From IMG/VR virus record IMGVR_UViG_2913112809_000002: DNA of 64,000 nt; one strand, given 5' to 3'. Position 1 is the first letter of the stretch, and every line of letters starts with the position of its first letter. A program made the position numbers. This DNA comes from a virus. Its lineage: Duplodnaviria > Heunggongvirae > Uroviricota > Caudoviricetes. Below, one piece after another: positions 43,619 to 46,600 of this stretch.

Positions 43619-46600
43619 ACCCGCTCCATAGTAGTAAGGCGAGATTGTGTTATGCACTGACACATTATATATGTGGGGATGGTTTTTGGCCTCTTTATCC
43701 ACGTCCCGTTCTGTAATGAGTGATACCAATTGCAGTCCAGTGCTATTTTTTTACACCATCGGAATGGTGCATCATCCCGATGTTGTAAACATCGCTAAAC
43801 GTGACATTGAGATTAATCATATATTAATCAAAATCTGGTAATACATCCTTAACCGCCGAACCAGGCGGTTTTTTTTATTTCTTCTCCGGACAAAAAAAAG
43901 ACACGAGCATCCTGGAATACTCGTGGGACAAGGTACTTGGTTAGCAATTTGCGAGAGGGTGAAAAAAATGGCGCGGCTGTCGGATTAAAGCCGCGGGACA
44001 AAGTCCATGAAGAATAATAAGTATCAGTCTCCTACAGGAGACGAGTTGATATTACTAAGCTTTAAAAATGGTTTAAATCCTCAGATTAACCTTAATTTCA
44101 GGTAAGTCTTATTTCATTTCTTCGCGCCGCGCCCGGCGCACATCAAAAACCACAGAGCCTTTCAGGGGTGAGCTTACGGGATGGTCAGTGTGACTTTCTC
44201 TGTGGGCTGGTCACTCCTGGGGCGCAGGCTCACCCACTAAAAGGAAAAGTCACGATGTTTGGTATTTTCAAAAAGAAAACCCGCAAGGCCATTACCGAAG
44301 TGAAGAAGATGGAGAACCGCGACGCAGTGGAGGCGACCGTCTGGGGTGCGTATTCCATTGCATACGCTGACGGCACCTGTGACGCGAAAGAAATCGCGGT
44401 ACTGGAGAAAACCATTGCAGCACTTCCTGCCTTTGCGCCGTTCTCCGGTGAGATTGCACAAATGAGCGCAAATATCCGCGCCCGTTATGAAGCGTCACCG
44501 CGTAGCGCGAATGCTCAGGCATTGCGTGAACTGGCTGATGTGGCAGGAACAGACGACGCGGTGAATGTGCTGTGCCTGTGTCTGGATATCGCTGACCAGG
44601 ATGGAATTGGTCCGGAGGAAGAAGCACAACTCAAGAAAATTGCTCAGGCGCTTCAGCTACCGCTGGAGCAGTACCTGTGAAAAGTGCGCGCCTTGTGCTG
44701 GCTGCCATCCTGCTGTTTCTGGTAGTGGCGGTGGATTTCACCGGACGGCTGATGTCGGTGCTGGCAGATGGTGTGCTGGTGGCGATGGTGCTGGTCGTGC
44801 TCCGGCCTTTACTGCGCAAATCTGAATAACACCACACAAAAGGCATCTGCGGGTGCCTTTGACGGGGTGTTGTTTTTTACGGGCCGCTGGTGGCCCTTTT
44901 TTATTTGCAGGAGAAGTTATGGCAGCAGAACCTTGTCTGGTGGCGGGGCGGTGGGGCTGACGATAGGTGGAGCCAGTGTATTCGGGATTCTGACCAACAC
45001 CGATTTCGGCGTGGTTATTGGCGCGTTTGCAGGGGCGCTTTTTGTTGTCACACAGCAAAAGGAAGTGCCTGTCTGGCGGATGTGTATCCACCTGCTGGTT
45101 GCTTTCGTGGTTGGCGTACTTGGTGCGGGTGTGGCTGCGTCTTTCATGCAGTGGTTAACGCACTACGACGACAAGCCACTGGACGCTCTGTGTGCGGTTG
45201 GTGTTTCAGCCCTGTCAATTAAGGCGCTGACGTTCCTGTATCAGCAGGAGATTACATCGCTGTTCGGTTTTCTGACGAAGCTGCGCGGCGGAGGAGGAGG
45301 AAATGGTAAGTGATGTTGCCGGGCAGGTGAATGTATTCGTCTGTGTGGCTGTTGTGCTGGGATTGCTCGTGTTCCGGTGGAGGGATGCGGCCCACAAACC
45401 CGTCATGGCCTGGCTGACTTATCTGCTGATGCTGGGATACGCAATTATTCCGCTGCGCTGGCTTTACGGTACCTACATGCAGTCGAGCTGGCTGGTCGTG
45501 GTGCTGAATCTTGTTTTCTGCGCACTGATAGTCTGGTCGCGTGGAAACGTATCAAAAATTATTTCATTACGGAGGTGAGTATGCCGGGGAAATTCAGATT
45601 CAGTCGTCGTAGCGAAAAAAATCTGGAGGGCGTCAAACCACAGCTGGTTGCCGTTGTTCGCCGTGCGCTGGAACTGACGGATGTTGATTTCGGTATTACG
45701 GAAGGTCTGCGCACGAAAGAACGCCAGAAACAGCTGGTTGCTGAAGGAAAAAGCCAGACCATGAACAGCCGCCACCTGACCGGTGATGCGGTGGATGTTG
45801 TGGCCTACATTGGCAGCCAGGTGTCATGGGACTGGCCTCTGTACGAGAAAATCGCGCATGCATTTAAGCAGGCTGCCGCAGAGCTGGGAACTGCCATCGA
45901 ATGGGGTGGGGACTGGCGGACGCTTAAAGACGGCCCACATTTTCAATTGAAACGATAGCTTGCAAAACATACAGGGCCGCCATGAGCGGCTTTTTTATTG
46001 CTCAAAAAACGAAAGAACGGAGGTACGTATGTACGCACTGAAAAAAATTACGGTAACTGAAGATGGTCGCCAGGTTGAGGAAGTGCATGTCCTGGGGGAT
46101 ATGTATCGTCTGGAATTTTACCCGCGTAATACCCATCTTGCAGCGCAGGTTGAGTATTGTCGGGACGGGAATATTCCATGCATTTCTGTAGAAAAAACGG
46201 ATGAGGCTTATATCACTACGCTGAATGGCGATACGGTGCGTTGCATTTGTCGCGGTGACAGCAAAGCCCGGAATGAAATAGCCAGATGTCGCGCCCATAC
46301 AGATAAATAAAAAGCAAAATACAAGGCTGCAACGAGTGGCCTTGTTTATCTCAGCACTTCGCACGGTGCGCATAAAACAGAGAATCTTTCAGGATGAGCC
46401 TTGAGGAAAACCGGTAGTGGTCTGGTTAACCCTCTCTGGCTGGTTATTCCTGTGCGCAAGGTTCATCACTAAAAGGAATAAACCATGAACGAGATGATTT
46501 CTGTCGATCATGAAATATCCATGAGCAGTCTGGACTTCCTGAATAACATTATTAATCCAGCTCGTATAGAGGCTGGAGAAGTCCCTCACGAACCGCGTAA

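Follow-up and report, generated by a model that had tools for sequence, protein, structure and literature searches.

The open reading frame (ORF) at 44255-44680 of the IMG/VR virus record IMGVR_UViG_2913112809_000002 (Caudoviricetes; 64,000 nucleotides (nt), hereafter the window) encodes a protein of the TerB family which, judged by its sequence, is the orthologue of TciA of phage P1. We found that this gene, tciA, is followed with great constancy by a small gene, tciB, whose product has the features of a membrane peptide, and that it is preceded by a structured RNA leader that recurs in front of unrelated genes of temperate phages. We tentatively propose that TciA and TciB act together at the membrane as a piece of phage cargo, and that the leader may belong to a class of regulatory RNA of its own. 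The coordinates of the features are collected in Table 1.

The first-pass annotation had called a TerB-like gene from the sequence alone, and profile searches confirm this assignment, which on sequence grounds is solid. The ORF proved exact, running from an ATG at 44255 to a TGA ending at 44680. Its product matched the Pfam family TerB (PF05099) with 31.8 bits against a cut-off of 24.4 (E=1.9e-7) and, over its full length, PHROG 632, named ‘tellurite resistance’ (E=9e-66). When a profile of 61 TciA homologues was compared with the solved structure of Klebsiella TerB (KP-TerB, PDB 2JXU, 2jxu_A), residues 5-142 aligned with residues 11-149 at E=3.6e-25. This homology was seen only with the profile; the PDB matches obtained with the single TciA sequence in phmmer, polynucleotide phosphorylase (PNPase) among them, were at chance level and were discarded. 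All 61 aligned homologues matched Pfam TerB, and 23 of them also matched the related family DUF533. Two acidic ADG...E motifs are recognizable in the alignment, with D39, G40, E46 and E122 nearly invariant, and the family shares the N-terminal consensus MFGxFxKK, which in the window protein reads MFGIFKKK. Structure prediction yielded six helices, as expected for the all-helical TerB-like fold, with a predicted local distance difference test (pLDDT) score of 56-62, and hence low confidence, over the first 20 residues.

Comparison of tciA with seven homologues gave dN/dS values of 0.02-0.07, dS not being computable for two further loci. Synonymous sites are near or past saturation relative to other genera, and the protein is still about 89% identical, which argues for strong purifying selection. 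Against P1 tciA, a megablast search of phage records aligned the whole coding sequence, and nothing beyond it, at 81.7% nucleotide identity, and dN/dS for this comparison was about 0.06. As a gene tciA is thus already known, both from the tci genes of P1 and from RefSeq, which names the pair in Escherichia coli prophages ‘tellurite resistance TerB family protein’ and ‘DUF3927 family protein’. The P1 orthology and the partner gene had escaped the first-pass annotation.

The partner, tciB, begins with a GTG that overlaps the tciA stop codon by 4 nt (GTGA), and the same overlap is present in the RefSeq/NCBI gene calls of related loci. It lies directly 3’ of tciA in 100 of 103 instances. Among six homologues, including P1 TciB, the residues D20, F21, T22, D31 and P44 are invariant; in the hydropathy profile the D-F-T triplet separates the two hydrophobic segments, D31 falls in the second of them and P44 lies near the end. 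A database protein of 196 amino acids (aa; P0048) combines TerB (PF05099) and DUF3927 (PF13064) in a single chain and is either a natural tciA-tciB fusion or the product of a frameshift at the 4-nt overlap. DUF3927 also occurs elsewhere: in prophage PP2 of E. coli E2348/69 (locus L002, 3130-4440) a DUF3927 gene stands 3’ of a gene for a 247-aa protein, in the same slot between the late antiterminator gene Q and the lysis genes. We considered a hidden TerB domain in this 247-aa protein and rejected the idea, as it is a multi-pass membrane protein. The published small RNA (sRNA) PasD2 starts about 40 nt past the DUF3927 stop codon in PP2. DUF3927 genes may therefore be recurrent 3’ companions of differing cargo.

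Upstream of tciA, conservation extends beyond the coding sequence. In the ~135 nt immediately 5’ of the start codon, identity reaches 96-98% with E. coli and Citrobacter loci at which synonymous sites differ by 23-35%, and 83% with a locus at which they are saturated. Over the 120 nt beyond, the loci are unrelated (44-50% identity), so that the block has a sharp boundary, and it starts directly after the upstream terminator or stop codon, whichever is there. The first-pass annotation had spoken of a conserved leader (copy 1) at this position, and rightly so: it is kept in 97 of 103 tciA loci, while the sequence farther upstream differs. It was not found in P1 or in the tciA loci adjacent to a repressor gene. 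Helices of copy 1, read by eye from the sequence, comprise the hairpin P0 (44124-44128/44135-44139), a pseudoknot between 44130-44134 and 44220-44224, and a long basal helix (44158-44174 with 44227-44244) in which CCUUU pairs with the Shine-Dalgarno (SD) sequence AAAGG.

A covariance model of the leader revealed two further copies in the window. Copy 2 is 67% identical to copy 1, with compensatory changes, and was also found by nhmmer (46347-46479, E=1.8e-11); neither a simple repeat search nor a blastn self-comparison of the window detected it. The gene behind it matches Pfam ANT (E=5.5e-27). Copy 3 is a weak match (E=7.6e-5 with filters off) in which, reading the alignment by eye, all helices can still be drawn, and it precedes a gene matching Pfam KilA-N (E=2.1e-15). 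Across 104 distinct leader members aligned to a model that did not include the pseudoknot, 91.5% of the alignment cells at paired positions can pair, compared with 32-49% when the 3’ partners were slid. Double changes occurred in 19 of the 34 pairs against 8.4 +/- 1.6 in shuffled alignments, and none of 500 shuffles reached 19. For the pseudoknot, which joins the loop of the first hairpin to a 3’ segment, pairing is possible in 96.6% of cells, one position occurring as AU in 82, UA in 9 and CG in 7. Because of this covariation we regard the leader as an RNA rather than a DNA element. Throughout the family the basal helix pairs (C/U)CUUU with the SD sequence AAAGG, again with covariation support; in most sequences the search pattern itself prescribed the SD and anti-SD columns, and it is chiefly the tciA-type and divergent copies that provide this support.

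None of the 4227 families of Rfam 15 matched the leader, either in the window at the gathering score, in 43100-45000 at E<=1 or at two other leader loci. We found no description of it in the literature searched, although this does not prove that none exists. A search of IMG/VR for an exact pattern placed it on at least 120 contigs, some of which carry two copies. Among the matches listed, the genes behind it encode a family of ~260-320 aa (62 cases), a GT2-like protein of 485 aa (15 cases), Rha, TciA and several small proteins. In phi80 (L227, 3501-3620) and mEp043, mEp213, mEp237 and mEp390 it overlaps or just precedes genes annotated as hypothetical, and in HK639 (L228, 2501-2615) it forms part of a terminator-leader-gene-terminator insert between tail genes. 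Many Shiga toxin (Stx)-converting phages carry it upstream of ant, and it is present in Salmonella ST104; other copies lie at L006 7470-7596, L007 9357-9483 and, in E2348/69 PP2, L002 7921-8072. We consider it a real possibility, if somewhat short of an even chance, that this pseudoknotted leader of ~125-147 nt represents an undescribed regulatory class that locks the ribosome-binding site and gates many unrelated accessory genes in late operons of temperate enterobacterial phages in response to some signal, be it a ligand, a change in temperature, a protein or a small RNA. Its clients may then include tciA, the ant-, KilA- and Rha-type regulators of Stx phages, the glycosyltransferase-like protein and several other families, with TciA as one client of a common ‘cargo switch’.

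The position of the pair in the window, between the tRNA genes and the lysis genes, is as the first-pass annotation had described it (Table 1). Besides Q, a RusA gene lies upstream of tciA. No sigma-70-like promoter was detected on the plus strand in 43871-44254 at the threshold of our scan, which scored consensus matches only, and no convincing promoter was found within the leader, by scan or by eye. With no promoter-like site detected between the terminator at 43851-43870 and tciA, the pair looks like part of the Q-dependent late transcript, and we infer that tciAB probably belongs to the Q-antiterminated late operon. Of the classical moron layout, tciAB thus shows the downstream intrinsic terminator but, in the consensus scan, no sigma-70 promoter of its own. 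No ORF follows tciB before the terminator at 44881-44896, and tciC is absent.

Table 1. Features around tciAB and copies of the leader RNA in the window.
Feature	Position	Strand	Evidence and remarks
Late antiterminator Q	42455-43150	+	Pfam Phage_antiter_Q (PF06323), E=2e-84; PHROG 304
Terminator-like hairpin	43213-43236		Terminator scan; between Q and the tRNA pair
tRNA-Thr(TGT)	43475-43550	+	ARAGORN; Rfam tRNA
tRNA-Gly(TCC)	43554-43628	+	ARAGORN; Rfam tRNA
Intrinsic-terminator-like hairpin and T-run	43851-43870	+	Terminator scan; 3’ of the tRNA pair, 5’ of the leader
Leader RNA copy 1	44111-44257	+	Covariance model, 156 bits; 5’ of tciA
tciA	44255-44680	+	141 codons
tciB	44677-44829	+	50 aa, two hydrophobic segments; Pfam DUF3927 (PF13064), E=3e-14; PHROG 1470 ‘TciB-like’, E=2.7e-24
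Intrinsic-terminator-like hairpin and T-run	44881-44896	+	Terminator scan; 3’ of tciB and 5’ of the first holin gene; almost invariant across related loci (alignment)
Lysis cassette	44933-45958	+	Phage_holin_8 (ends 45313), Phage_holin_3_7 (45303-45578), M15 endolysin (45581-45958); Pfam, PHROGs
Leader RNA copy 2	46341-46487	+	Covariance model, 110.5 bits; directly 5’ of an ANT/KilAC antirepressor-type gene (46485-47180)
Leader RNA copy 3, diverged	21518-21367	-	Covariance model, 25.3 bits; 5’ of a KilA-N/ORF11CD3 gene (21369-20722) in the other prophage

Two features next to the pair deserve mention in their own right. In 44910-44960 the usual start of the first holin gene (Phage_holin_8) appears to have been lost: the ATG at 44919, which aligns with the start of the Citrobacter holin, is put out of frame by a 1-nt deletion and opens an ORF of only 13 codons, and the frame that matches the family can start only at a TTG (44933) or a GTG (44951). 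The gene may be frameshifted or N-terminally shortened, or the sequence may contain an error. Upstream of tciA, in the distal stretch beyond the conserved block, the minus strand has a terminator-like hairpin with a T-run at 43925-43902 and a second GC hairpin with a T-run, read by eye, at about 43990-43960. These hairpins (43895-43990) could terminate transcription in both directions or mark where a small antisense RNA ends; no promoter on the minus strand was detected in their vicinity.

To place the window locus in a wider context, we compared it with other carriers of the pair. A tciA match is present in 684 of 5426 complete E. coli genomes (~13%), IMG/VR holds 436 TciA homologues, and a large protein database contains 232 close homologues, with identities of 75-97% among the 120 matches listed. 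Their hosts are Escherichia, Citrobacter, Klebsiella, Enterobacter, Pantoea, Rahnella, Yersinia, Hafnia and Plesiomonas, and some of these homologues come from contigs of about 90-112 kb, which by their size may be P1-like plasmid prophages. An exhaustive search of cluster representatives recovered only 174 relatives at E<=1e-3, most of which have a length of ~140-150 aa and share 25-40% identity. Contigs labelled as a Bacillota metagenome-assembled genome, Pseudomonas lundensis and Kocuria sabuli (L004, L009 and L015) also carry tciA genes that are almost identical and of enterobacterial type (89-96% aa identity); these labels most likely reflect contamination or mis-binning and not the true host range.

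In E. coli loci tciA, tciB, holin_8, holin_3_7 and the M15 endolysin gene form a constant block, around which the type of Q, the upstream genes (a DNA methylase, PmrD or tRNAs) and the downstream terminase type vary. The holin/holin/M15 cassette accompanies tciAB in ~77 of 103 instances. At the Enterobacterales locus L008 the pair sits between a Phage_antitermQ-type Q and an S-like holin/GH19 lysin cassette; with both Q and lysis genes of other types there, the Q-to-lysis slot and not one particular cassette is the common factor. The first-pass annotation had described the interval between late antiterminator and holin as a classic cargo slot, and the comparison across prophages bears this out: in E2348/69 the slot holds other cargo (the membrane protein, DUF3927 and an esterase), and the pair itself occurs in several unrelated phage contexts, marking it as a mobile accessory module. 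In Erwinia rhapontici (L011, 3745-5580) and on the contig labelled P. lundensis (L009, 3215-5580), tciAB lies directly downstream of a CI-like repressor gene with helix-turn-helix and Peptidase_S24 domains. At L011 the two are separated by a terminator and by a promoter-like site that operator-like repeats flank, and co-transcription with the repressor gene is therefore unlikely; the corresponding gap at L009 contains promoter-like sites only and no terminator. In P1 the pair is part of the ban operon, which C1 represses, and follows a dicF-like region and a pair of tRNA genes (tRNA-Asn/Thr). Judged by their sequence signals, all contexts examined are thus under antiterminator or repressor control, which suggests expression on induction or infection and in none of them constitutive expression in the lysogen. 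Together with the missing promoter and the terminators flanking the pair, this leaves the role in lysogenic conversion that the first-pass annotation had suggested unsupported. According to a preprint, TerB is conserved next to the sRNAs PasA and PasC. We followed up this link and rejected it for tciA, since the Pas sRNAs of E2348/69 lie between esterase and holin, with no TerB gene beside them; in the window PasA, PasC and PasD2 gave chance-level matches only.

Taken together, these data lead us to propose, as a tentative reading that is more doubtful than assured, that tciAB is a membrane-directed two-protein module in which TciA serves as sensor or regulator and TciB as membrane element, made mainly from the late transcript and used for exclusion or membrane protection. 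TciA would be a soluble, all-helical TerB-fold protein whose hydrophobic and basic MFGIFKKK end could bind the membrane reversibly, and TciB a helical-hairpin membrane peptide of 50 residues with a conserved acidic residue in its second helix. TciA would then sense or control the state of the membrane and act through TciB at the inner membrane, by analogy with TerB and the membrane protein TerC and with DinB and the pore-forming DinC of the Dionysus system. The outcome would be exclusion of superinfecting phages, pore-forming colicins or other membrane-attacking agents, or protection from them, and not a tellurite pump. The pair would be produced as part of the Q-antiterminated transcript, with translation gated by the SD-hiding leader. 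Several observations count against this proposal. The expression in lytic growth that all contexts suggest would suit a helper of the phage’s own development at least as well as host defence, and the argument from expression is weakened by promoter scans that score consensus matches only. The first 20 residues of TciA, the proposed membrane contact, are those modelled with low confidence. In E2348/69 DUF3927 comes after a membrane protein that is not TerB-like, so that TciB is not strictly dependent on a TerB partner. No model of PADLOC-DB 2.0.0, a library older than the description of Dionysus (2025), matches TciA or TciB at E<=1, and in the literature searched we found no experiment on any TciA or TciB. 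No phenotype has been published for the tci genes; a genome-wide CRISPR interference (CRISPRi) screen of P1 scored tciA, tciB and tciC as non-essential.

The most likely of the rivals, though still an unlikely one, is a helper of lysis timing or membrane homeostasis, in which TciA and TciB hold the ion balance or proton-motive force and prevent early holin firing, to the benefit of the phage’s own burst. The pair stands immediately upstream of the lysis cassette in about three quarters of the loci, this linkage to lysis genes persists at L008 in spite of other holin and endolysin types, the expression signals point to the lytic phase, and TerB is linked to TerC, the membrane protein of the ter cluster. 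However, tciAB lies away from the lysis genes in P1 and in the Erwinia and ‘Pseudomonas’ loci, knock-down in P1 gave no clear defect, and the linkage to the cassette may reflect no more than inheritance as a common block. The lytic expression suggested by all contexts would also suit a decoy that jams TerB-based membrane surveillance of the host, be it the phage inhibition exerted by ter clusters or systems like Shango, Bunzi and Dionysus. Host defences with TerB exist, and phage copies of defence components that act as inhibitors are a known theme. We nevertheless consider a decoy improbable: it leaves the tightly linked membrane peptide TciB unexplained, and the enterobacterial hosts of these phages probably lack the named systems for the most part.

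Two further proposals derive from names. The third meaning of the P1 name ‘tci’ would make the genes inhibitors of cell division in host take-over, and the P1 tci genes do share the ban operon with a dicF-like region and are grouped with division-control genes in a P1 transcriptome preprint. The name is based on homology only, however, and the fold offers no pointer to the division machinery, and we hold this reading to be very improbable. Resistance to tellurite or oxidative stress (or colicins) conferred on the lysogen through TciA has in its favour the end-to-end homology with TerB of the ter operon and the names used for P1, in PHROGs and in RefSeq, of which the P1 name, again, rests on homology alone. 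Yet terBCDE(F) is the smallest ter set tested that confers resistance, the integral membrane protein TerC being considered its key component and TerB the interaction partner of TerC, and none of terA, terC, terD, terE and terZ lies near tciA: the window neighbours are Q, the tRNAs, DUF3927, holins and endolysin, and no such gene is found among the Pfam-annotated neighbours at 10 related loci. Given that the other ter genes are missing and that no promoter was found that would serve expression in the lysogen, this is the weakest of the rivals and, in our judgement, likewise very improbable. Authors who met a lone terB in other phages voiced the same doubt about tellurite resistance. Since a lone TerB cannot do the job of the ter cluster, the name ‘tellurite resistance’ for tciA is probably misleading.

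The window as a whole contains two late regions that point outwards (1-30000 on the minus strand and 30500-64000 on the plus strand) from a central immunity/early region. In both, a pair of tRNA genes separates a Q-like gene from the lysis genes, tRNA-Thr/Asn at 22853-23008 on the minus strand and the Thr/Gly pair of Table 1 on the plus strand. No integrase-sized ORF was seen between the two elements, which may be tandem prophages or a recombinant. Rfam matches above the gathering score, all on the plus strand, comprise the lambda cIII thermoregulator (34049-34107), a c4-a1b1/isrK/C4 antisense RNA cluster (39421-39623) indicative of immI-like antirepressor control, and the sok antitoxin RNA of a hok/sok module (40331-40501).

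Carried by ~13% of complete E. coli genomes and also by P1-like phage-plasmids, tciAB ranks among the more frequent uncharacterised cargo modules in temperate phages of enterobacteria, and the recent validation of TerB-like proteins in membrane-linked anti-phage systems provides an experimental handle on it. What our analysis adds for the pair is context only: tciA has a constant partner, the expression signals are of the lytic type, and the architecture parallels that of the TerB defence systems. The leader is the more valuable by-product. If it is a true switch, it controls accessory genes in phi80, HK639, the mEp phages and Stx-converting phages, ant among them, and thereby bears on how prophage cargo is expressed.

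Among known systems, the tci module of P1 is closest, with an orthologous tciA, a DUF3927 gene tciB directly downstream and tRNA genes upstream, as in the window. P1 differs in having tciC and in its C1-controlled ban operon without the structured leader, whereas in the window the pair lies between Q and the holins, behind the leader and followed by a terminator. TerB of terZABCDEF (2JXU) is of the same family and length as TciA, all-helical, and likewise has two acidic DG...E motifs; its counterpart in the window is, however, accompanied by a 50-aa peptide and not by TerC. The first-pass annotation had associated TerB-like domains with stress and defence modules. This holds for the family, as TerB-like proteins are parts of the validated anti-phage systems Shango, Bunzi and Dionysus, but the PADLOC search gave no sign of it for TciA itself. 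In Dionysus (DinA, DinB, DinC), Shango (SngA) and Bunzi (BnzA) a TerB-like protein is likewise encoded together with a membrane protein, a likeness of architecture only; the Dionysus preprint describes the TerB-like DinB alongside DinC, a pore-forming toxin with four transmembrane (4-TM) segments, cites a proposal that TerB proteins shuttle between cytoplasm and membrane, and suggests a role in membrane surveillance. Those systems differ from tciAB in being three-gene, chromosomal systems of Pseudomonas and others with a helicase/ATPase or 4-TM toxin, and tciAB may be said to resemble them without being a detectable member.

A second parallel, one of analogy only, is offered by small prophage exclusion modules such as rexA-rexB of phage lambda, which encode a cytoplasmic and a membrane protein and are non-essential temperate-phage cargo beside the repressor gene. 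The pair would be comparable to rexAB in joining a cytoplasmic to a membrane protein and, in the Erwinia and ‘Pseudomonas’ loci, in its place next to a repressor gene, but there is no relation in sequence or fold. For the leader, the counterparts are pseudoknotted leaders and riboswitches that hide the SD sequence, and the RNA thermometer of lambda cIII. With known SD-hiding leaders and riboswitches it has in common the long helix over the ribosome-binding site, the pseudoknot and a variable stem; it differs from them in matching no Rfam family and in preceding unrelated phage accessory genes instead of the genes of one pathway.

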